A DNA stretch of 62,036 nt, the filler included, from Kipferlia bialata (taxonomy: Eukaryota), in the NCBI GenBank assembly GCA_003568945.1. It is 4 parts of 4 records of this genome, joined end to end, with 100 filler letters (N's around TTAATTAATTAA, not from the genome) between each part and the next. Parts side by side here need not be neighbours in the genome. Positions count along the whole stretch, not along the records: positions 17,146 to 34,176 come from BDIP01000552.1; 3 more parts are not named here. One strand, 5' to 3'. The notes beneath the pieces were generated by a model, which had not been told where the DNA came from, ran no database searches, and saw only the letters and a list, made by a program, of their open reading frames with translations. Positions 3,858 through 27,032 of the stretch are shown here, in pieces (position 1 is the first letter of the stretch; every line of letters begins with the position of its first letter). A program made the translations under genes and the position numbers.

Positions 3858-6001
3858 CTAGACCGAGGTGGTGACGCCCCTCTTCTTGGCCTGGGACAGT
3901 GAGTGATACAGTGAGTGTGACAATGCAAATATACATCCCATGTATATAGAGTATATAGAGTAAGTGTGACACAAGACAATAACAGTGAAAAGTGCATATC
4001 AGATCAGCGTATATAGAGTTACTCTCCATATACCTTAGACGGTCTGAGCGGGTAGTACACCAGTGACATACACGTGTACTGTAGTACTGTGCCCACATCT
4101 AATAGCCACATCTGTGATGCCAGCGCACCCACCAGTGCTAGCACCGTGATACCAGCCGTACACACCACAATGACAGTGTACAGCCAGGGGAGGATGGCCA
4201 TCTTGTTTAGGGATCTACGCCTCTTGACACCACTTACCCCCATACTCCTGGCCTGCAGGGTACGTGTTGTCATCCTCCTCAGGAGGGCGATGGATGCCAC
4301 GACAAAGGCCATGAGGGCTAGGCATAGGGTGCCCAGGATACCCACATAGACGGCCCAGACCTACGCTGGTCAGAGATGCTGAGAGAATATACAAATTATG
4401 GGTGGACGTCAGAGAGAGAGGGGGGGGGGGGGGAAGCGCCCGTACCAGATCTGTGTGCCCATAGAACATGTCCAGGGTGAATCTATCCAGACCCCCTCTG
4501 TACATATCTCTGTAGACCAGGGTGTCCCAAGCATATACACACAGGGCGGCAAGGGTGAGGGCACACGATGATACCTGTGGTGAAGGCAAGAGTAGTGGTA
4601 CACAGAACAATACATGCCGTCACTTTCAATCGAGATGACGTATAAAGCACATGGTATAATGCATCATTCTATTTGAGGAAATGAAAATGGACTATAGTCA
4701 CTTTAGTGTATGAACTAGTACAGTACCGCTCACCTTGACCAGCCGTGTCATGAACCTGAATGCCTTGGGGGACACAACACCCCGGAACACCTGGGGTCGG
4801 GGGGAGGGATATCCAGAGGAGTAGAGCACACGTGTGTACCCACATGTATAAACATATGGATGTACGGGGGGGGGGGGGATCACTACCGATGTGTATTATG
4901 TATTTAAGTTGTCTCCACGTACCTGCACGTATACGACTATGAGTGGGAGTGACGTGTACACTTCCATACAAGTGGCGCAGAGGGTGATGGTGGATCGGTA
5001 GGGGAGAAGCTGGGTGAGGAATGGAAACAGAGGGAGAGAGAGAGGTACCACTGTACTTATGGGGAGTGGGCGAAGACACAGAAAGAATGGGGAGTCATGA
5101 CCACCCAAATGGGGGAGAGACGGAGTGGCTAGTTTACTATATCAATCAGCACACCTCAAATAGGACCTCCACGGGTATCTGCCTGGCCCAGTGTGATGTG
5201 TCTATCCTACTAGAGATCCAATAGACATAGGTACTGTAAACACAACCCCCTATGAGGCTGAGGGCTAGGGCAGCTGGGGGTAAGTGTATCAAGATATGCA
5301 TGGACGGGAGAGAGAGAGAAAGAGAGAGAGAGAATACATTCCCCCTATGAGGCTGAGGGCAAGGACAGCTGGGGGTGAGGGATGTGTATCAGTATATATA
5401 GATGTATATATATGTATATATCTATATATATGTATATGGGGGAGGGGAGAGAGAGAGAGAGAGAAAACGGACAGTCGTCTATGAGACTGAGACCAGCTGT
5501 GAGTATGTAGATATACGGGATACTACAAGTGGACATATTGATAGAGGAGACATATTCGTGAAGAGAGAGAATGAGAGGAGAGAGAGGGGGGGGATGGGGG
5601 GGATAGCTTGGGGATAGTCTATTAGCATACGTATATATAGAGAGGGGGGGAGGGACATTACATATAAGGTTAAGTGGATGGGCAGCTAAATGTATGGAGT
5701 GTCCTTGACAAGTAGTATATAATAGTGTATCAGAATGGGCACTGGATGAGAAGATGGTAGCGGGACGGGAACAAGCCAATACACTCTATGTATGTTGGTA
5801 CCAGAGACACAGAGACGGACACCTACCTGTCATGCCGTACAGACTGGCCCTGCCCCACGGGTTGTCCCTCCTGTGTCTGTGCATTTGGACGTAGGAGAAG
5901 GTCTCGGCACACATCCCCACCACCTTCACTCTCTCATACACCAGGCAGGCCAGGGTGAACACATCCATGGCTGAGAGGAGAAGACAGACGGAAGTGGACA
6001 A
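3858..6001 (-). CDS. Multi-exon multi-pass membrane protein, 7TM-like; convergent with the previous gene
   Basis: Starts MSTSVCLLLSAMDVFTLACLVYER. Later exons include VSSCALTLAALCVYAWDTL and GILGTLCLALMAFVVASIALLRR...MAILPWLYTVIVVCTAGITVLALVG...YTCMSLVYYPLRPSK|AKKRGVTTSV*. Confidence 0.65.
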
Positions 6002-11152: not shown

Positions 11153-13425
11153 ATGGGAGGAGGGATGGGTATGTACACGAGGGCGCCCCCCCTGCAGGGT
11201 AGGAGAAGGAGAAGGTATGCATCCACCCTCCGGGTACACGTATGTATACACATGTGTATCAGACCCATGTGTATATGTCGCTCAGCTCCAGATTCATCCT
11301 CAGGCGGTACCCTGTGTATGCTGAGTCTGAGTCTGATCTGGAGGACCTGTACCCTGAGTGGGTCAATGAGAGGGAGAGGGCGATAGAGAGGGAGAGAGAG
11401 GCAGCACTCACTGTCGGAGCAGGTAGGGATAGACCTATTTCTCGAGTAACACATATACTCATACACTTGCATAAACTTAGCGTCTAGGCCCACTCTCCTA
11501 GTTCTCTCTCTTCCTCCCTCTGGTCCTGTCTACCCATATACTGTATATGATATACATGTAACCCCAGGCACCTCCTCCCTCCCTGCCCCTCTCTTCTCTG
11601 CCCCCATCAGAAGTGGTGCCAAGAGGATAGTGCTCTGTGGGCCACCAGGGTCTGGGAAGGTATGGTGACATATAAGATTCATTATCCTCACCCAGAGACC
11701 CCCTAATAGATATAATGCCCACTGCTATCACACCTTTGGCGTGTAATAATGCAGATATCAATCCATATTCTGCTAGTATCCCACGCCAGGGCACTGTGTC
11801 CCCTGCCCTCATAGCGGCATACGGCATGGTGCACATAGCACCAGGTACAGGGGATAGTAATGTGTTACACTACTAGTGTGTCTATAGAGTTTCACCGTAC
11901 CCATAGGCCCCCACCCTCAGGTGACATGCTCCGAGAGAATGTGCAGAACAACACACCCCTGGGTAGGAAGGTAAGATCCCGACTGGTAATGCTCTATAAC
12001 AGATTACCCTACATGGAATGGAAGGTATATGTCTGTAACAGCACCTGTACTCATTCTCTGTCTGCGTCTCTCTCGGTATATCCAGCCCCTGTACTGTCTC
12101 ACCCCATGCCTCTGCCTTCATGGAGAGTGGGGACCTGGTACCAGACGACATCATCATACAGATGGTGCTGGGTGAGTGTATATATATGAATTGAACCCAG
12201 CTGGCCTCTCATCATCTCTCAGATAGTGTATCTCTGATCCATGAATACGTATATAACATATTCTTGTAATGTAGCACTATCCATGTTACATACTCACCAG
12301 CAGACCGCCTTGACAGACCTGATGTGGCCATGCATGGGTTCATACTCGACGGGTTCCCAAGGTGTATTCCAACTACCTAGAGAATGCTGGTCAATGTAAC
12401 ATAGTGATATTACAGTGTACTCTGCCCTCACCCCCAGGAACGTGGCCTATACTGGTCAGTGTAGCATAGTACCATTATCTTTGTCTACTGCCCCCACCCC
12501 CAGGAACGTGTCTCAGGCCCACTGTCTCCTGGACGCAGGCATAGTCCCCACACACGTGTTGGTGCTGGAGGTGGGTGAAAGTGACGCTCCAACACTCTAT
12601 CACTATGTCTACTCGGCTGGCTACCTGACCCCCAGATCCCCGAGCCTGAGGTTGTGCGTAGACTGGGGGGCAGACTGGTGGACCCACAGACTGGGGACAC
12701 ATACCACAGAGAGTGAGGGCGTGATAGTGTATATTCAGAGAAGGAGTCATTCACATACTCTATTCTCTCCTCCACATATATATGACAGTGTAGCTGACAG
12801 AGCCCTATTCCCTCTCTCTCTCCATCCACTCAGCCCAGGTTCCGCCCCCCACCCCCTGGCCCCATCTCTGACAGGTGCACCACCAGGCCTGACGACACTA
12901 TGGACAGTATCAGACACAGACTCAGGGTGTACAGGGGTAGGGATATATCAACCATATTGAAGTATAATAGGGCCAAATAACTATAGTGTAGAGTCTACCC
13001 CCAACCCCAGCCACCACCCACCCCGTTGTCTCTGTCTTTGAGAGGCATGACTGCAACGTGTCCCCTGAGATCATTCGGTGGGTGTCTACCATATATGCCT
13101 AGTAGGCATTGCCTACCCATATAAATTCTACTATCGGATCACACTAGTGAATGTCACAGTGCCCATATCCTCTCACCTCAGGGTTGATGCCTCCCTAGCC
13201 CCCTCTGACGTCGCCCAGTCCTGTCTAGCAGCACTCCTGCCACCAGCAGAGAGAGAGGCAGAGAGAGAGAGGCTGGCTGCTCTCAAGGAGAAGGGAGAGA
13301 AGGAGAGGGCAGAGACTGAGAGACTGCGTGCTGAGAGAGAGAGAGTCAGCAAGGAGAGAGAGTGGAAGGCTGCTGCTGAGGGGGCTGGCTTGGGGTCACT
13401 CAACGACACCCTGGCTCATGTGTGA
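11153..13425 (+). CDS. Adenylate kinase with N-terminal extension and charged C-terminal tail
   Basis: P-loop RIVLCGPPGSGK|GT, HIAPG|DMLRENVQNNTPLGRK, FMESGDLVPDDIII, GFILDGFPR, RLGGRLVDPQTGDTYH, TRPDDT, VDAS; stop TGA at 13425. Confidence 0.92.
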
Positions 13426-13682
13426 GCAACTACTCTCACTTTACACTGCTATGTCTCCATATACGAGTATGTTGGAATGCTCCTGACTCATAAATGAAAT
13501 AGAAACCATCCCTGATAGAGTTGAGGTCTTTGCAAATACATATACATCCACATCCCACTGAGATCGGATACAGGATGGTATCTATTCTGATCCACCCAGG
13601 CACCCTCCCCACACTCTCTCCTTCTTACTGATACAATGTAAATACACGTTCGAACTACACCAACTGATACCTCTCTCCCTCT

Positions 13683-14874
13683 CTAGATGGGCTCCACATA
13701 GGATGGGGGGAAGAACCCTGTGAGGGTCTCGCCATACTGGTTGGTCTTGGTCCCACTCACCCAGCCACCCTGCAGGGACACAATCTCAACGACGTCACCC
13801 GCCACAAGGTCGAGCATCCTAGGGGTCAGGGAGAGAGAGAGAGAGAGAGAGACGTATACATACTCATATGGACTACCACTCACCTGTCATCCTCGTATGT
13901 GAAGTCGTCTATGCACCGGCACCTCATGCCGGGCACAAGCTCCACCTCCTCCACCTCCTCCTCTGGGTAGTACTCCTCCTCCTCAGAGGCCTCAACTGCT
14001 TGGGCACCCGGCACAACGCCCTCTGCCTCTGCCTCTGCCTCCTCCCCCTCACTCTCAGGGGCCATCATAGGCGGGGCAGGGCTGTCTCCCTCCTCCTCCC
14101 CCTCCTCGCTGTGGGCACTCTCCCCCTCTGCCTGACCCTCAAACTGGGGTCTAGAGAGGGCAGAGTGGGCACGGGCCACGTAGGGTGTGTGTACGTAGTA
14201 GGCATCCGCCTCAGACATGGCGTCCTGGGGGGTGAGGGGGGAAGTGTGAGAACAATGATGATGTGTATAGGGTAGCTATGATGACACCCACCTGCTCTGT
14301 GGGCTCGTACTCCTCCTCCTCCACTATGACAGAGGCCATGTGGTGGGGGACAGAGGAGCCTGGGGGGTCAGGGGGTGGACAACGTTGGAGAGAGAGAGAG
14401 GTAGAGAGAGAGAGAGAGAGAGAGTGAGAATGTACCTGGTGTTGTGATGGGGGCACTGGACGGCTGGGGCTGGGTGGCAAACATGTCGTTCCACCTGCCC
14501 ATGAACCTGACCAGGGTGCACAGCACAAGGGACTTCTCGCCCTGGGGGTAAGAGAGAGAGGTAGACAGAGGGATAGAAACCTGTACCTTGTGGCATGACA
14601 GCACCACTGCGTCTCCCTGGGGGGGCTTCACCCTGAACCTCTTGGGGTCTGAGGGCATGGGGTCCAGGGACAGGGCAGAGCCTGGGGGGTGAGATGGAAA
14701 TAGATAGGAATATACATGTATACTAATATTCATGGTGAACGTACCGAGGGGGAATGAGAACACGGGCTCTCCCTTGCCTCCGAAGCGCCTTCTCTTGTGT
14801 GCCTCCACCCCCCTCAGAGAGAGTGTGGCCACAAGGCGGATGAAGTCCTTGGCGGCGGTGCCTGGGGTGAGAGG

Positions 14875-14906
<32 letters not shown>

Positions 14907-17000
14907 CTGACAGGAGGGAGACACACGTGGTCCTTCTATCCTCTAGATGTACATTCCCTACACACCTGTCCTGAGCTTGAGCAGGTACACGGCCTCGCCC
15001 TTGGTGATGGCTCTGTCGACCCTGGGGTTAGAGGAGGATGCGATAAACCACAAAGTGGTACTTAAAGGCACTCTAAACACGCCACTCACTTCTTGGCTGT
15101 GTCTGGGGTGGGCTGGTCCACTGGGGGTATGCCCATGGGATATACGGCAGAGGGGGAGACATGGGGCTCAGAGGGGGCATAGGCTCCGTCTGACTCAGAC
15201 TCGTCTGGCAGCTGGGCCATGGCCATCTCGGCCTCCTCTCTCTCTCTCTCTCCCTCCACACCAGTCTCCACCCCACCTGGTACACCACCGTATGTCACTG
15301 TGTCTGGGGTGTAGCTGGGCTCGGCTGGGACAGGGGCCGGGGCCTCCTCCCTCAGCTCCACCTGTCTTACTGGCTGCATGGTGGCTGCCAGGGAGGGGTG
15401 TGCCTGTGCCTGTGCCTTGGGTACGGTAGAGGGAGAGGCAGAAGTGACTGGGGGCGGGGTGCCCCTCTCTCTCTCCTCCGGCATCACAACCTCCACCTCC
15501 TGCAGCGTCATCTCACCCATGTTGGGCCCTCTCTCTCTCTCCCTCACCCCCAGGTCAATGGTCCTGCTCAGCCCCTCGTCCTCTCTCTCTGCCTCTCTCT
15601 CCCTCTGTCTCTGCCCGTCCTCTATCTCCCCAGGCCTCAGCATCTCAGCCATCACCACAGGCTCAGCTGTCCTGGCAGCCACAGCCATACTCATGCTGCT
15701 ATCCCTCCTATCCACAGCCATGCCCTTGGGGGGATACTCCCTGCTGTCACCCCCCGACAGCACCACAGGCTGGGAGGGTAGGGGTGGGGGGGCCCTCCTG
15801 CGCCTGGAGCTCTGGGACAGTCTCTCTCTCTCTCTCTCCCTGTCCCTAGTGTCTGGACTGGCAGGGCCTGGGCCGGGTCTGGCACTGGCCTACAGGGTAA
15901 GGTGACAGCTGGGTGACATAGCGTATATACACACGCATACAACCATATATACTGCGATGTGTAGCATGCCCCCCTTACCTGCTCAGGTGAGTGTGCCGCC
16001 GCACTCTCAGTTCTGATGGACTCCAGGATGTCACGGCGCTGGGTGTGAGAGAGTGCCATATGCATATATATACTACACACACTCATCACCATCCAGACCC
16101 TGTACCTGGTTGTCGAGTATCGCCTTGAGCTCTGAGGCTGTGAAGGTGGCCCCGCCCTCGGCCTCTCTCTCCCTCTCCGTCTCTCTCTCCATCGACGCCA
16201 GGCTCTGTCTCTCTGTCATAGCAAATGACCCCATACCCCTAGAGGGACCAAGGGGAGGCAGTGCGGTGTGGGTGTGTGCGAATGATGCCTGTGCGGCAGG
16301 GGCTGCCATGGGTGTCTGGTTGTACCTGCCCATAGAGACAGACCCAGCGGTTGGGGACGCATTGAAGTTGGGGATGGAGTGTCTGTGCACTAGCTGGGGC
16401 CTAGGGGCAGCATTGGATGTGGTGGTGTCATAGACTGGGCTACGTTGTCTCTGCTCTGCAGTGACTGAGGCAGAGAGAGGGCTCCTCACCAGGGACACGC
16501 TCCTGTCCCTCTCCCCCTGTAGCTCCCCCCCTGTCACCATAGGTGTACCTGGGGTGCTGAACACACTGCCCCTCACCCCAGCCCTCCGCATCTCACTCAG
16601 AAGGTGGTCACGGTCAGCACCTGGGGGTGAGGGCGAGGGGGTGCAGGGGAGAGATACATATAGGAGTATATGCATATGTATCCTATGTACTATTATCCTG
16701 TGCACCCACCCGATATGCCTGGCCCTGACACACTCAGCATGAGCCGGGGCCCAGCGGCCAGGGCGGCACTGACCAGGGTGTCCACACCACCCACACTCAG
16801 ACGGTTGCCACCCACGTGCAGGGCCTGGGAGGGTGAGGGAGGATGATGCAAGCAGCGGTAGAGCTGCACATACATACACGATTATGAAAAAAGGCCCCCA
16901 CCTTGATGGATGGCACTGAGTGGAGCACTCTGGCCAGGGGCAGAGAGGACACATCCGACAGACCACACCCATTGAGACACAGGGTGTGCATGCCTAGGAG
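13683..17000 (-). CDS. LRR-like / PH-like / C-terminal SH3 protein; 5' truncated by contig end
   Basis: C-terminal SH3 RCRCIDDFTYEDDR|MLDLVAGDVVEIVSLQGGWVSGT...GFFPPSYVEPI*. N-terminal RI-type LRR-like segments LCLNGCGLSDVS and LHVGGNRLSVGG. Possible PH-like fold in exons ~14440-15020. Long low-complexity linkers. Confidence 0.8.
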
Positions 17001-18546: not shown

Positions 18547-21500
18547 TCACTCTGCGTGTCTGGTTGACATCCCAAACACAGTGGCACCCCTCTCACTGTC
18601 ACTGGTCTCACTCTCCACGCTGTCAGTCTCACTCTCTGCTGTACTCACTGACTGGGCATCCATCTGGGGGGCTAGGGGGACACTTGGGGCCTGGGGGTAA
18701 GGAAAACACTATACATATATAACATACATTCAGTATGTGACAAGGGGGACACTTGGGGCCTGGGGGTCAGAAACAATAGAGACAAAATAATGCATAATAC
18801 ACAGTGTATATACCACATATATCTCTGGGGGGGAATTTGAAATGCTAGGGCCTAATGGTTAGTAACATCCTTCGACACAGCGACACAGAAAGACATAAGG
18901 GGGGGCAGGAAGGTCAGTATTAATACCAGTCTTAGCATATGTGTATATATCATATATTGCATATGCCTGTGGGTACCCCCTGCTAGCCCTGGATGACTCC
19001 TCTGTTGACATACATATATATAACAAGTATATATATACTATATGTATATCTTAGCATATGGATATATATATCACGTGCATATACCTGTGGGTACTCCCTG
19101 CTGGATGACTCCTCTGTCGACACACATATATATAACAAGTGTATTATACACATATCAAGTACATAGTATGCATGCAGTATGTAGTGTGTACCTGAGGATA
19201 CCCCCTGCTGGATGACTCCTCTGTCGACACACTCCCACTGCCAGGTGGGGTGGCCTGGCTGGTTAGATATACACACATACATACATATACATATACATAT
19301 ATACATCCGTGGTATACACACTTAGGTATATGGTATATATATGTAGGTATATGTAGATATATGATATATACAAATGATATGTACTATCACTAATCAAATA
19401 TACACTCCCCACCTCTCTCTCCGCCATGGCCTCTCTCATCACACACATACATACATATATAATCATATATATATATAAATCTATATGGTATATATGTTTT
19501 GATGTTACTCTTACTCCCTACCTGTCTCTCCGCCATGGCCTCTCTTAGCATCTCTCTCTCAAGGGAGTCCTGAGGGTTAGACACAAGTGCAAAACATATA
19601 TATATATATATATATACATAGACATATATATATATATATTAATGTACACATACCTCACTGTCAGATGTCTCTGATGAGGATGCACTGTCGTTGACCATTG
19701 CTGACTCCATGGCAGAGGGTCTCTCAACAAGACCTCCGGAGACCTGAGGGGGTTAGACTATGCTACTATTTACGTATGGTTATCTTTGACATGCCCATGC
19801 TATACAAGTAGTCGGATATATGTATGTATATATATATATGCGGTACCTCTCTCTTGACTGCACTCAGGGGTGGAGGGGCGGCACTCAGAAGGTCAGGCAG
19901 GCCTGAAGGTTAGAGATACAAACTGTACATCGTATACCACCATACCTACGAGTAGGTCATCCACTCAAGATACTAAGGATACTCAATATACATATGTACT
20001 TGCCTGTATAACAATATACACATATACTGATGATTACTATATACCTGCCAGCAGGTCATCCACCCCAATTGACCCCTCTGCGTCCCCCTCTCCGTCTCCC
20101 TCTCCCTCTCTATCCCTGTGTGTTGCCTCTAGTGATGCCTCCATGGCAGAGTGCTCATCGACAGACAGCATAGACAGCTGACTGGCCCTAATATGTTAGA
20201 ATAGAAAGATAGAGAGAGAGAGAGAGAGAGATGCCTNNNNNNNNNNNNNNNNNNNNNNNNNAGATAGAGAGAGAGAGAGAGAGAGATGCCTCCATGGCAG
20301 AGTGCTCATCAACAGACAGCATAGACAGCTGACTGGCCCTGGTATCAGTATATGTAGGTTCATATATATATATATGGAGAGAGAGAGAGAGAGAGAGAGT
20401 GATGCCTCCATGACAATATATAACCACAGCACTATCTATATATAACCACGCTCATCGACAGACAGCATAGACAGCTGACTGGCCCTGGTGTTTTAGAATA
20501 GAAAGAGAGAGAGAGAGAGAGAGAGATGCCTCCATGGCAATATCTATATAAAACTATAGTACTATCTATATATAACAATGCTCATCAACAGTCAGCATGG
20601 ATCAGCTGGCTGATGTATATGAGAGTAAATACGCAACATACCTTGCTGCAGGGTGGATGGACCCAAAGGAGTAGTCACTGTCTCCACACTCAGACTCTAG
20701 GGTGCCTGGGGTTATTATAGTGTATATACATAGGATCATATATAGGAACATACATAGGAGGTATAGGGTGCATGTGTACTAGTAGGTTAATGCAGTAGTG
20801 TATACTATATATCCATATTATACTAATGAAGATGTGTGTCAATACCTGTCTCTCTGTCTAGCCCGAGGTCCCTCTCTATCCTCTCCCTTGCATTGCAGGG
20901 AGGGGGGGTGTTGGTGGCTGGGGGGTCAGACAAGATAACACGTATACATTAGTATATCAATAAGTATAGTAGATGAGTATAGTAGATGAGTATAGTAGAT
21001 GTAGTAAGACACATTGAGTATATATACCCATACCTGGGAGGGGTGGCCTAGAGGCTCCGCCCTTGCCAGGGAGGGGCTTACGCATGGCCCTGGGTGTCAG
21101 AGATAGAAACATGTACAGTATCTATATCTATACATAGCGTAGATATGTACATGCATATCTATCAATATACCTAGGGTCCATGGGTGACCTTGGTGCACAG
21201 GGTGAACGGGGTGCAATGGGGGGCCTGGGGGTGAGAAGCAAGAACAGTTATTAATCACTAACTAGTCATTTACCATATATGTGTATTGTAGCGCAGTATG
21301 TGTACTATATATACCTAGGACTGGCCGTGGGTGGCAGTGGTGACCTGACAGACTCTCTGGCCCTCAGTCCCACCACACCGGCCTTGCCACGTGGTGCCTC
21401 TCTCTCTCTGTCTCTCTCCCTCTCTCTCTGACCATCTCCGAAGGGTGCCTGCCTGCGCATGTCCCTCTCATGGTCCCTGTCTCTCTTTCTAAGGGTAAGG

Positions 21501-24500
21501 ATCATAGTACAGTTAGTATATATAGGTCCCTGTCTCTCTTCCTAAGGGTAATGATCATATCATAGTGAGTATAGATAGTATAATTGGAAGTATATGTGTG
21601 TAGTAGTGTAGTAGTATAGATCTCTCGTGGTCCCTGTCAGTATCAGTATCAGTATCTCTCTTCCTGGGGGTCACTGATGACTCCAATAATGTAGTTGGTA
21701 GAATAGTATGTATTGGCAGATATATTACATAACGTCTAGTAATGAAGAGTCATTGAGATTTCCCACCTCTCTCTGGCCCTCTCCCTCTCTCTCTCTCTCT
21801 CCCTCTCCCTCTGCCTCTCATCCACTGAGTCACTCGACTCCTCGGCCAACTCAGAGTGACGGAGATAGGAGCCTAGAGTTAGGTAATAAACCAGTAAATA
21901 TAGTATAAAAATATAAACTCGGAGTGACGGAGATAGGAGCCTAGAGTTAGGTAATATATTAGTACATAGATATATACAAATTATCCCACCTGAGTTGAAG
22001 GACCTTCCCTTCTTGGGCCCTCTCTCTCTCTCCCTGCCCCTCTCCCTCCCAGAATCAGCATCTCTGTCTCTCTCTCTCTCTCTGTCTCTTCTGCCACGGT
22101 GTGTGAAAGTATCGGCTATGACACTCGCACGGATGGCCTTCCTGAGGTCATTAGAATAGGGATATAGTCATTAGAATAGTGACAGAGTCATAGTGAAAGG
22201 GTCATCTCAGAGCACTCTAATGTACATACCTCCCCCCTCTCCTTGGTCTGTACGTGTCATCCTCAGAGTCAGAGTCAGAGTCATCGTGTCTAGAGGTGAG
22301 TGTATATATACATGTCTAGAGAGATGTAGATACAACATATATACAAATATGCATATACTATACTATACCATACTATACTATATACATGTCATCCTCAGAG
22401 TCAGAGTCAGAGTCATCATGCCTGGGTGAGTGATTCTCTTATAAACATTACTATAATCTACCAGATATACACATACTTAGTATATATATACCTCCTTCTG
22501 TCTCTCCTCTCCCTCCCACTCCTGTGACTCTTGGAGAAGCGACCCCTGCCGCGAGACCTATTGTCATCCTGAGGGTTAGGGATGAGAATTATACACATAC
22601 ATGCAATGCATTATCTGTCGGTGTCGTACTGAGGGACAGTGACATTACAAATATAGTATATACTGAAGACACAGAATATACAAAGTAGTTATACCTCACT
22701 GTCGCTCTCAGACTCAGAGGGGTTCTCTGGGTTACCACTCAGGGCAAACTCACCACTTGGCCACTCCACCCTGCTGTACACAATGCCCTGGGAGTTAGTA
22801 ATATACTATGTCAGTATCAGTAATAGATATGTGCTGCACTCAATGCATATGATTCAAGGAACGTGTCTTAGTGAATAGACTACGCCTAAATACACACTAA
22901 ATATACCTTAGCATCGTGCTGCACGGCCTGGCCACAGAAGGCACGCAGACCTGGGGTGAGGGTATATACTATACAGACATAGTGAAAACACCATGTTACA
23001 CTATGTGGACACTGTATACCTGCTGCACTGCTGGGGGTGACTGTGGCCTGGTACACACTTATACATTCATATATATATATATGTATATACACTTATATGT
23101 ACTCTATATACTATATACACTACACATTAAGTGTACCTGCCGCACTGCTGGGTGTGACTGTGGCCTGATAGAGTTCATTCAGACACTTGAGAAAGACACA
23201 TAATAATATATACACACACACATATATATATATGTATACTTCCACAACACATACCTGCTGCACTAGACGGTGTCACTGTAGCCTGATACAACTCGTTCAG
23301 ACACTTGAGACAGACACACTTGGGGGCATACTTGGCCAGGAGGGGGTCCTAGTATGAGTTTGCGTAGGTATACATATATATATACATATACATAGTATAT
23401 ATATCATATATCATATATGTATATAATAAATACACAGTATATATATATATATACATACATAGTACATACATCATATATTGTGTACACAGTATGTATATAA
23501 ATATACTTGGGGACATACTTGGCTAGAAGGGTGTCCTGGGAATAGTACATATATACATTGTGTACATATACACAACATATGCAGGTATAACGAGTGGTAG
23601 TATATATATACAGCCCTCCATACCTGCGGCATCAGGAATGCTGGCCTTAGTGCTGGGTACTTCTTGTGTCCCATGGTGCTGAACCTAACTGGGACAGAGG
23701 TGTGACACATGTCGCACAGGCCCTAGAAGTTAGATGAGTGTATGTACAATATATACACTTCCACATACCGCCTTGACCAGTGCCTCCTGCAGATAGACAT
23801 GATACATACGCTCATACACACACACACACACACATCTATATATATATATATACGCATAGGAGTAACTATGAATATCTATGTGTACCACATACCGCCTTGA
23901 CCAGTGCCTCCTGTGGCTTGGCCTTGATATATATATACATANNNNNNNNNNNNNNNNNNNNNNNNNNNNNNNNNNNNNNNNNNNNNNNNNNNNNNNNNNN
24001 NNNNNNNNNNNNNNNNNNNNNNNNNNNNNNNNNNNNNNNNNNNNNNNNNNNNNNNNNNNNNNNNNNNNNNNNNNNNNNNNNNNNNNNNNNNNNNNNNNNN
24101 NNNNNNNNNNNNNNNNNNNNNNNNNNNNNNNNNNNNNNNNNNNNNNNNNNNNNNNNNNNNNNNNNNNNNNNNNNNNNNNNNNNNNNNNNNNNNNNNNNNN
24201 NNNNNNNNNNNNNNNNNNNNNNNNNNNNNNNNNNNNNNNNNNNNNNNNNNNNNNNNNNNNNNNNNNNNNNNNNNNNNNNNNNNNNNNNNNNNNNNNNNNN
24301 NNNNNNNNNNNNNNNNNNNNNNNNNNNNNNNNNNNNNNNNNNNNNNNNNNNNNNNNNNNNNNNNNNNNNNNNNNNNNNNNNNNNNNNNNNNNNNNNNNNN
24401 NNNNNNNNNNNNNNNNNNNNNNNNNNNNNNNNNNNNNNNNNNNNNNNNNNNNNNNNNNNNNNNNNNNNNNNNNNNNNNNNNNNNNNNNNNNNNNNNNNNN

Positions 24501-26995
24501 NNNNNNNNNNNNNNNNNNNNNNNNNNNNNNNNNNNNNNNNNNNNNNNNNNNNNNNNNNNNNNNNNNNNNNNNNNNNNNNNNNNNNNNNNNNNNNNNNNNN
24601 NNNNNNNNNNNNNNNNNNNNNNNNNNNNNNNNNNNNNNNNNNNNNNNNNNNNNNNNNNNNNNNNNNNNNNNNNNNNNNNNNNNNNNNNNNNNNNNNNNNN
24701 NNNNNNNNNNNNNNNNNNNNNNNNNNNNNNNNNNNNNNNNNNNNNNNNNNNNNNNNNNNNNNNNNNNNNNNNNNNNNNNNNNNNNNNNNNNNNNNNNNNN
24801 NNNNNNNNNNNNNNNNNNNNNNNNNNNNNNNNNNNNNNNNNNNNNNNNNNNNNNNNNNNNNNNNNNNNNNNNNNNNNNNNNNNNNNNNNNNNNNNNNNNN
24901 NNNNNNNNNNNNNNNNNNNNNNNNNNNNNNNNNNNNATATATACTAATATACGTACCGCCTTGACCAGTGCCTCCTGTGGCTTGGCCTTGACTGTGCCAA
25001 GGTCCTTGACCTGCACGTTGCACCTGGTACATTAGATGATGATCTATACATATATTATTACTATAAATATATATATATATATATGTACTAATTGGTACAC
25101 TTGTACAGTGATGTCCAGGTCCTTGACCTGCACGTTGCACCTGGTGTTAGGATATGGAACACATATATATAGAAACAGGTATAGGAGGTGATACAAACAG
25201 TAGTATGACAGTATATATGTGCCCAGGTCCTTGACCTGCACACTGCACCTGGTGTTAGAATAATATACGTGTATATATACGCACACACACATATATATTA
25301 ATCTATGCTTATGGTGGTACAACTCCCGTACCTCCTAATAGATGCAAGCACTATGACTAGCACTAGACTGCTGGCCAGGAAGAACATGCTGGGTATATAT
25401 ATATATACAGTACTACACACTATATACGTGTATCACTACAATACCTTCTGATACTAGCCAATACGATGACCAATACAAGACTACTGGCCAGGAAGAACAT
25501 GCTGGGTGCCACCAGTTCAATGACAGTGACAGTGTCAGCAGTGACAGTCTCTAGGATGTGGGCCTAAGGGTTAGAGACATAGTAGTATGTGCATAAATAC
25601 ATCGCATTCATAGAGAAAACATATAGCTATATGGAATGTCAGTATTGGCCTTGTGTTAATCCATATGTACACTCCTCCTCCCATACCTGTGCATACATAG
25701 GTGGTAGCACCACGTATCCATGCCCATCCACCCACTGTGTCTGGAGGTTGATGGAACAGAGGACAGTCTGATGGTTAGTATGTATAGAGAGAGAGAGAGA
25801 GGGAAAGAGGAAGAGAGGTTGATGGAACAGAGGACAGTCTGGGGGTTAGTATACACAGACATAAAGGGAGAGACTATGACAGCCCATACCGACGCTGTCA
25901 GACACACGTATCCCCAATTGACACTATAACATTATCATATATAACCCACCTGCTCCGTGACATAGACACCCCCATCTGTCACCACTGGTAACTGCAGGGA
26001 GGTGGACGCTGGGGGTGAGGCATAAGACATCATGCATATATATCATACATATAGATGTAAGGAATACAAAGTTCTGGTACGTACTCAGGTCCAGTTCGTC
26101 CCCACTGATGAGTGTCCTCAGACTGGACAGATCCACAAAGGGGGCACCGGCCTGAGGGTAAGGGACTGTGAATAGTATATATATGTACTATATAATACAG
26201 ACTATACTATATATGTGTTATATAGAGTATACAAGGTATATATCCACAAAGGGGGCACCGGCCTAGAGGGTAAGAGCGGAGACTACTACATCCTGGGTAC
26301 CTTTATACTGCTGCATTATACTCTTAGAATACTATGAATACATATATACACTGTACCTGACACAGCCCAGTCCAGTATGTGATGGGGTCATCCTCATCGA
26401 AGGCAAAGGCCGCACCCGAGGGGTCACCCTGCTCATCGGTCTCAGTGCCTGATGTAAGGGTATATATCACACTATGGTAGTGTGATGGCGTTTGCACATT
26501 TCATTAAGAGTTCAATACACTATACACAGTATACACCCATACCTGCCAGCCCAGGGTATATGTCCAGAATCTCGGGTGCAGTGTATATCACGGTGCGTGT
26601 CCTCTCGGGATGTTCATCCTTCACAGTGTCCATTACACTGTTAGCACTGTTAGCACTGTCACTTGATGCACTATCCACTGTATCTGTGCTTGTGCTCTGA
26701 ACCTCAAAGGCGATGGCTGTGGAGTTGGCGGCGAGGAGACCTGGTAGGTAAGTATAATCAAGAACATACATATACATATTCAAACATACACATGTATGCG
26801 TATGCTATTCGACGTACTGAGGTGTGCTGTGTCTGGCCTGTCACTGGGTGTGCATATCACTACATCCAGAGTGGTGAGGGCAGTGTCAATTGGGTTGCCC
26901 TGGGGGTAAGTGAATTATGAATATATCCTCATCATCTACTCCATTATGACATCGAACCCATACATATACTCTCTCTCTCTCTCTTAACATATCAT

Positions 26996-27032
<37 letters not shown>

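Follow-up and report, generated by a model that had tools for sequence, protein, structure and literature searches.

The analysed stretch of the Kipferlia bialata genome (hereafter the window; 62,036 nt including filler, joined from four records of assembly GCA_003568945.1) holds three genes, G1, G3 and G4, whose introns carry copies of neighbouring exon edges, and six further gene models. We call such a copy an echo, i.e., an ungapped intronic copy of the adjacent exon edge. Two kinds are found, namely an exon end with its donor, located downstream of the exon, and an acceptor with an exon start, located upstream. The features of G1 that are central here, together with the clearest echo groups of the three genes, are listed in Table 1.

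G1 is predicted from its model to be a single-pass membrane protein, with the focal segment as its sole strong hydrophobic stretch. The frame of G1 is backed by a stop-free chain of 34 exons as well as by RNA joints and is open save for one scaffold overlap. The latter is a 54-nt exact repeat on either side of a single N (28496) within a G1 exon (28442-28550); it is a scaffolding overlap and not an echo. The predicted cytoplasmic tail (18551-23722, minus strand) comprises 588 residues with two CxxC motifs, followed by (GA)n microsatellites that encode extended runs of Arg/Glu and Ser/Asp. A Pfam comparison with 13 G1 exons gave nothing near the cut-off, and protein searches among proteins of up to 2,000 residues provided no relatives; the RNA contig introduced below suggests a longer G1 protein. 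Matches to two representative proteins and one metagenome locus all fall on a Ser/Asn-rich stretch and were rejected as low complexity. Beyond the 11 introns confirmed by RNA, the gene models were built here and checked by open frame alone. The frames of one of them (G6) are ambiguous, and it was used for echo density only.

Table 1. Location of the focal features and of selected echo groups, in coordinates of the whole window.
Feature	Position	Strand	Basis
G1: 56 exons encoding about 1,530 residues within the window; the 5' part lies outside the contig	18551..34110	-	models; 11 introns by RNA
Real exon with the predicted TM segment of G1	25445..25563	-	RNA contig (25443-25562, 0 other letters); frame; hydropathy
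Copy A, the exon end present in the mRNA contig	25445..25506	-	sequence and RNA contig
Focal GT..AG intron of 421 nt with copy B and two acceptor echoes	25024..25444	-	RNA joint 25021-25443
(TA)7 run at the junction before copy B	25394..25407	.	sequence
Copy B, donor-type echo: 23 identical nt, then 14 differences, same peptide	25332..25393	-	sequence
Donor GTACGG of copy B, intact, unused	25326..25331	-	sequence
First acceptor-type echo of the following exon, made of branch motif, AG and 31 nt (silent/replacement differences: 2/1)	25218..25260	-	inside RNA joint
Second acceptor-type echo of the following exon, with 29 nt (silent/replacement differences: 1/1)	25112..25152	-	inside RNA joint
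Real next exon	24957..25023	-	RNA contig and frame
Exon 23255-23348; echo 23137-23200 with 11 silent and 1 replacement differences, echo 23020-23055 with 8 silent and 0 replacement differences; another Ser switch	23020..23348	-	sequence
Exon 33030-33115 with echoes 32841-32895 (6 silent, 0 replacement) and 32709-32763 (6 silent, 1 replacement)	32709..33115	-	sequence
G4 six-copy donor array: real exon end and 5 echoes; 6 variable sites, all silent	39855..40542	+	sequence
G3 four-copy donor array; last copy decaying with 3-4 residue changes	53978..54386	-	sequence

The end of the focal exon (copy A) recurs within the following intron (copy B), which a sequence-only reading had described as a silently recoded duplicate. 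Our recount agrees, i.e., the 62 nt differ at 14 positions in 11/20 codons with all 20 residues unchanged, and copy B starts 51 nt into the intron, behind the (TA)7 run. The serine AGT/TCT switch it had listed is indeed among the differences; counted strictly stepwise, these comprise 12 silent steps and 2 via another residue. All differences are confined to the last 13 codons, following the identical 23 nt (24 including the preceding base; clustering P=0.001), and 11/13 codons are changed compared to a mean of 8.7 at saturation. For these genes, the codons of copy A in this part are unusually rare (p=0.004; copy B: p=0.09). The two copies are 77% alike over their exon-derived positions, and their aligned flanks about 66%. 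Use of the donor of copy B would add 113 nt and shift the frame, followed by a stop.

If 14 substitutions are placed randomly on the A/B pair, at least 2 residue changes always result (200,000 trials). A model that combines a neutral echo with an exon changing only at silent sites produces zero residue changes in 0/20,000 trials. The proposed comparison of substitutions between the copies amounts to 14 nt differences with 0 residue changes, and the claim that both copies evolved under coding constraint is supported for most of their divergence.

We compared the stretch 24940-28110 of the window with contigs from two runs of one sample. Run X2 was taken as RNA on account of its 11 GT..AG joints; run X1 is DNA and possibly the source of the assembly. 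X2 provides one spliced contig, whose joints confirm 11 G1 introns. With regard to which copy reaches the mRNA, for which the reading had proposed an RNA comparison, this contig joins 25021 to 25443 and thus contains copy A, with 0 other letters. Copy B as well as both copies of the next exon's start are removed in one intron. Among the 6 scored echoes of this 3.2 kb stretch, 5 are inside RNA joints and the sixth is located in a bin without RNA cover. The RNA result stems from one contig of one sample, and contigs drop rare forms such that minor isoforms would stay hidden. In X1, one contig of 854 nt spans 24962-25771 at depth 433 (neighbour: 397) with 0 other letters and 0 gaps; its depth is flat across a 198-nt exon and across copy B. 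No other letters are observed in X1 over the covered bins (22/30), and no second X1 contig matching the exons at 80% at least is found among the matches listed.

Since the RNA contig skips the echo and the DNA contig holds both copies, two explanations raised along with the original observation are unsupported. For the first, an optional in-frame exon of 57 nt, the acceptor scores -0.6 and thereby below all 71 real acceptors (on a hand-built score), the preceding intron would be 56 nt long compared to 66 nt for the shortest real intron, and the sole RNA contig skips the piece (rare forms are invisible in contigs). For the second, a tandem mis-assembly of two haplotypes, copies A and B are found together in the full-depth 854-nt DNA contig with 0 differences.

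All modelled introns were scanned for echoes. G1 and G3 show 57 hits in 71 introns, where decoys reach the score in 1/1,680 trials. Dropping 3 low-complexity hits leaves 54 echoes, i.e., 36 scored echoes in 23/54 introns of G1 and 18 in 12/17 introns of G3 (53075-58373, minus strand; 432 residues). G3 is an LBP/BPI-like gene model, in which one exon matches Pfam LBP_BPI_CETP with an E-value of 0.006, below the cut-off. G4, modelled afterwards, adds 20 echoes, such that the total is 74 echoes in 47/96 introns of the three genes. Five doubtful hits without splice dinucleotide were kept among the 74; the echo at 56329 was left out of the counts of codon-position identity and codon preference. The six other gene models show 0 echoes in 48 introns. 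The focal A/B pair is the extreme of the 74 echoes and not a singular event.

The 54 echoes of G1 and G3 divide into 29 of donor and 25 of acceptor type, and GT/GC or AG is kept in 52/54 (GC donor in the echo at 18967). Splice-site scores of echoes and real sites are similar (median 4.6 vs. 5.3, p=0.27). The innermost acceptor-donor pair is always the real exon, which matches what exon definition would give. A branch motif CT(A/C/T/G)A(C/T) is located 1-7 nt ahead of the closing YAG in 66/71 modelled introns, and splice signals look alike across the four contigs of the window.

Microsatellite-mediated unequal recombination had been suggested as a source of copy B. Here, (AT)3+ runs lie beside 36% of the echo junctions vs. 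18% of the intron background, such that the association is modest; over 10 gene segments, a link between echo density and (AT)n content is not established (rho=0.50, p=0.14). By hand count, donor and acceptor echoes share an intron in about 6 cases, with 6 expected. This chance-level co-occurrence does not favour the insertion of whole intron-spanning fragments.

The spacers of the six-copy G4 array are 71-93% alike. Decay is seen in the echo 31284-31314, which lost its GT and gained a stop. Between the echoes of exon 29335-29400, two more acceptor-like units with a short shared tail are found (29440-29530, minus strand), which are below the score threshold by decay. Single echoes outside the counts are present at 5246-5379, 12384-12510 and 45416-45544 in otherwise echo-poor gene regions.

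Both echo density and protein-level constraint on echoes are demonstrated for the window. Based on strict counts, the 74 echoes show pS=0.281 and pN=0.053, i.e., a ratio of 0.19, whereas neutral decay gives at least 0.5. The neutral-echo null is rejected in each of four gene segments (P<=0.002); it produces on average 96 residue changes with a minimum of 76 in 300 runs, compared to 55 observed. The identity between real exon and echo is 1137/1202 (0.946) at codon positions 1 and 2 and 481/602 (0.80) at position 3. Within the donor flank (+3..+12), identity drops to 145/270 (0.54) vs. 0.37 for the background of unrelated donors. That is, the donor flank of echoes is homologous yet has drifted far beyond the replacement sites of the echoes.

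The same pattern is observed when echoes are compared only with each other, where 21/29 variable sites are silent and 8 are replacements (p=1.5e-7). Within the G4 six-copy array, the five echoes vary at 5/13 silent but 0/29 replacement sites (p=0.0015). Echoes with high pS do not show a higher pN (0.035 vs. 0.049). Since pN does not rise with pS, silent divergence does not reflect the age since duplication. Intron-flank identity is uncorrelated with pS. Codon preference is uninformative on which copy changed, as the commoner codon is found in the real exon in 51 and in the echo in 47 cases. For one array, the spacers are 53/56 alike, yet 6/18 codons differ. Private silent changes per copy amount to 13 in 10 real exons vs. 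13 in 22 echoes.

An untranslated sequence keeps the code only if it is recently derived from a working exon or returns into one, and we thus propose exchange. Our favoured reading, which we consider probable, is that echoes are tolerated exon-edge duplications which working exons on divergent homologues keep renewing through exchange. With regard to copy B itself, a divergent allele as source or exchange partner, one of the origins suggested beforehand, is likewise the best and a fairly likely account; the second haplotype that goes with it was not seen in X1.

The reading can be laid out as follows. Each echo has one splice site and the innermost real pair is used, so that exon definition may explain why echoes are tolerated. 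Replacement sites of the echoes have changed far less than either the silent sites or the intron flank of these echoes. An echo would mispair with the real exon end of a homologue, whereupon gene conversion or unequal crossover could write the working allele into the echo. Exchange in the reverse direction would expose harmful echo mutations to selection, and exon and echo would come to differ as two alleles do. Mosaic patterns, taken together with the constraint, would imply sequence movement from the echo into the expressed site. For the focal pair, the identical 23-nt block may be a recent conversion tract and the remaining 39-nt block may represent two old allele lineages. The exon-like part, which would be the best conserved stretch between diverged homologues, is where out-of-register pairing would take place. 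As a candidate lead, repair by Dmc1 only might tolerate mismatched triplets and let diverged stretches pair. The fornicates examined in PMC8516963 are all described as lacking Rad51A and having two Dmc1 paralogues, and metamonads as lacking NHEJ; stabilisation of mismatched base triplets by Dmc1 is reported in PMC6719624.

We studied the reading by simulating a small population of 150 individuals with simplified sites, as a toy model run once for each setting. If homologues do not exchange sequence, pN/pS ranges from 0.45 to 0.75 in 6/6 settings, and conversion within one chromosome alone was rejected on this basis. When inter-homologue exchange is added at scaled conversion rates of 3-20, pN/pS is 0.03-0.31 (0.03-0.29 where the homologue is the conversion donor) and pS tracks allele diversity, while at a rate of 0.3 the ratio stays at least 0.48. 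For homologue conversion at theta 0.3, pS is about 0.32 and extremes like the focal pair appear in 0.2-2% of the echoes. Since the observed values fall inside the range found with exchange, we adopted the inter-homologue reading. It would require, judging from the model, a silent allele diversity near 0.2-0.3. The meeting of homologues may take place through sex, in a hybrid or in an anciently asexual diploid. Selection for escape from homology was discarded on logical grounds, since any change of an echo would be favoured and not only silent ones.

Several observations count against exchange with homologues. A divergent donor allele was seen neither in X1 (no other letters over 22/30 bins, no second contig over the exons among the matches listed) nor in a metagenome scan, whose single match is low complexity, and P0001, a kinase protein encoded in the window, has no twin above 57%. 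The required silent diversity (about 0.2-0.3) equals or exceeds the record of 13-20% given in PMC8270832. Two k-mer peaks led to K. bialata being called diploid (PMC5874029), which fits high allele diversity badly unless the sequenced cells are largely homozygous. With 11/13 changed codons above the saturation mean and the rare codons of copy A, the focal pair goes beyond what allele drift alone predicts. The array with spacers 53/56 alike and 6/18 differing codons demands that tracts be short and limited to the exon portion. Finally, the 0 echoes in 48 introns of six gene models are unexplained.

An alternative route into protein is direct use, i.e., echoes enter a minor share of the mRNA, or the mRNA of a different life stage, and are thereby selected directly, be it as optional exons or through a non-canonical repeat jump. 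Echo splice sites about as strong as the real ones speak for such use, as do the in-frame and open 57-nt piece, the strong constraint and the fact that contigs hide rare isoforms. Still, copy B is skipped in the RNA contig, and the weak acceptor of the 57-nt piece and its 56-nt upstream intron stand against it. Direct use of the echo sites would be in frame and open in only 5/48 testable echoes, and an acceptor-like AG within the range of real acceptors is present for 2/27 donor echoes, where both pieces are 11 nt long and shift the frame. We know of no canonical route that swaps half an exon, and overall we deem direct use unlikely.

Echoes might also be neutral snapshots of older exon states, where the exon has since changed at silent sites. 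Real exons do show more private silent changes, copy A is rich in rare codons and some echoes clearly decay. The snapshot null, however, does not get below 76 residue changes with 55 seen. Furthermore, it would need an exon rate about 8 times that of the echo, yet the intron flank of the echo is far more diverged than its replacement sites, and the predominantly silent differences among echoes contradict it. We thus consider snapshots quite unlikely.

If the donors were resident paralogues or a second subgenome (of a hybrid or old asexual diploid) from which echoes are copied, silent-only divergence would arise without extreme population diversity, in line with the diploid k-mer call. This is improbable in view of the lack of a second contig at 80% at least over the exons among the matches listed, of the flat depth over the 198-nt exon and copy B, and of arrays with three or more mutually diverged versions. 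In addition, the kinase protein P0001 encoded in the window has no near twin (none above 57%). A past hybrid followed by loss of heterozygosity may merge with the exchange reading.

We consider it very improbable that somatic deletion between direct repeats occurs in part of the DNA copies, with both versions expressed from rearranged templates. Identical blocks (e.g., the 23 nt) could serve as crossover points with an unchanged protein product, and somatic instability is reported for the Adh3 repeats of amphioxus (PMC3087553), but no A-B joint is found in DNA, the 854-nt X1 contig is unbroken and the mRNA contig has copy A only. For a heritable form it can be argued that clean and damaged echoes would be lost alike, with no selection among the survivors. 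That the assembler joined two haplotypes in tandem is hardly credible: (AT)n is often found at the junctions, a true scaffolding overlap is present once in the window (N at 28496) and X1 is possibly the source of the assembly, but the separate re-assembly yields one contig over 24962-25771 (depth 433 vs. 397, 0 differences, 0 gaps), the junction run (14 nt) and shared block (24 nt) are both shorter than a 31-mer, copy B starts mid-exon as no intact haplotype would, and RNA processing removes the whole as one GT..AG intron.

The structure of the echoes is that of the amphioxus mirages and as such already known, while the protein-level constraint is new. Mirages are described for Adh3, the globins BflGb6 and BflGb9, troponin C and PGBD5 as tandem duplicates of the 5' or 3' exon boundary that retain AG/GT and leave splicing normal, including arrays with signs of unequal exchange (PMC3087553, PMC3902484). 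Kipferlia echoes likewise span the exon-intron boundary (copy B consists of the exon end, GT and homologous flank) and cover both 5' and 3' boundaries (29 donor, 25 acceptor). They keep their splice signals (52/54), and the real sites are used for 5/6 echoes in the RNA contig, in which rare forms are invisible. The minisatellite clusters of mirages (81-100% alike) are matched by the six-copy G4 array, whereas the focal pair has 2 copies at 77%. Further differences are the host, here a fornicate protist with echoes in 47/96 introns of three genes and mostly 1-3 diverged copies, as well as strongly diverged intron flanks next to exon-like parts under protein-level constraint. Such constraint is not reported in the mirage sections of PMC3087553 and PMC3902484. 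Within the open-access literature (supplements aside), we found no paper on such copies in Kipferlia and none on purifying selection in mirages; the main text of the K. bialata paper (PMC5874029) contains 'duplicat' 0 times. The Rogers model, in which a duplicated AG/GT proto-splice site gives rise to a new intron (PMC3087553), shares the short intragenic duplication hidden by splicing. In contrast to it, no new intron position arises here, but an existing intron grows (median 262 vs. 104.5 nt).

Two further systems keep unexpressed or alternative copies of coding sequence, and echoes differ from each of them. Silent gene-conversion cassettes (trypanosome VSG, Borrelia vls, chicken Ig pseudogenes) are unexpressed copies whose coding character is maintained by exchange with an expressed site, and they supply new amino acids. 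Echoes, however, encode nearly the same peptide and reside inside the gene's own introns in unrelated genes. With regard to the suggested swap or conversion cassette, echoes resemble one in the kept coding character but not in the supply of residue variants (0/20 residues differ in copy B; pN=0.053 overall). Tandem exon duplication can also give rise to mutually exclusive or cassette exons, which are neighbouring copies with low dN/dS. In contrast, echoes have one splice site only and are absent from the RNA contig, and the acceptor proposed for copy B scores below any real one.

For non-coding copies to follow the genetic code, some route has to lead from them into protein. If this route is homologue exchange, one assembly would suffice to estimate allele diversity and to provide evidence for recombination in Metamonada, in which sexual or parasexual processes are described as not directly observed (PMC8516963). 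Echoes would then be a built-in record of recombination and extreme diversity, and a natural test of the effects of Dmc1-only repair on a genome. If the route is use at the RNA level, an unknown kind of splicing would be at work. With either route, dozens of decoy splice sites per gene that are as strong as the real ones form a test set for splice-site choice, in an organism for which a reduced spliceosome is reported (87/174 proteins; PMC6679479). Gene finders mistake echoes for exons, as gene finding did here. As a tentative generalisation, never-spliced exon edges may be kept protein-true throughout the genome of the free-living K. bialata by constant, mismatch-tolerant, Dmc1-only exchange between homologues. 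Each gene would then have several old alleles with a silent diversity of 20-30% or more, and the echoes would record inter-homologue recombination (sex or parasex) in a metamonad.

The window also includes the kinase gene of P0001 (46424-50030, minus strand; KIPB_003050, exon 100% identical, paralogues at 57% and 53%) with a HECT-like exon (E-value 8e-05, below the cut-off). Unlike those of its neighbours, its 15 introns hold 0 echoes, are nearly devoid of (AT)n and have weak branch motifs. Beside G3, an intron-free open frame on the plus strand (58961-61400) matches RVT_1 with an E-value of 2.5e-22 and is likely a non-LTR retroelement, flanked by G/C runs near 58490-58540. A gene model with 0 echoes in 10 introns is located at 13682-16824 (minus strand) and ends in an exon that we take, by eye, to be SH3-like. 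A small gene at 34447-35135 (minus strand), presumably ubiquitin-like as judged by eye, has two more acceptor echoes near 34583-34620 and 34700-34760, which are outside the counts.
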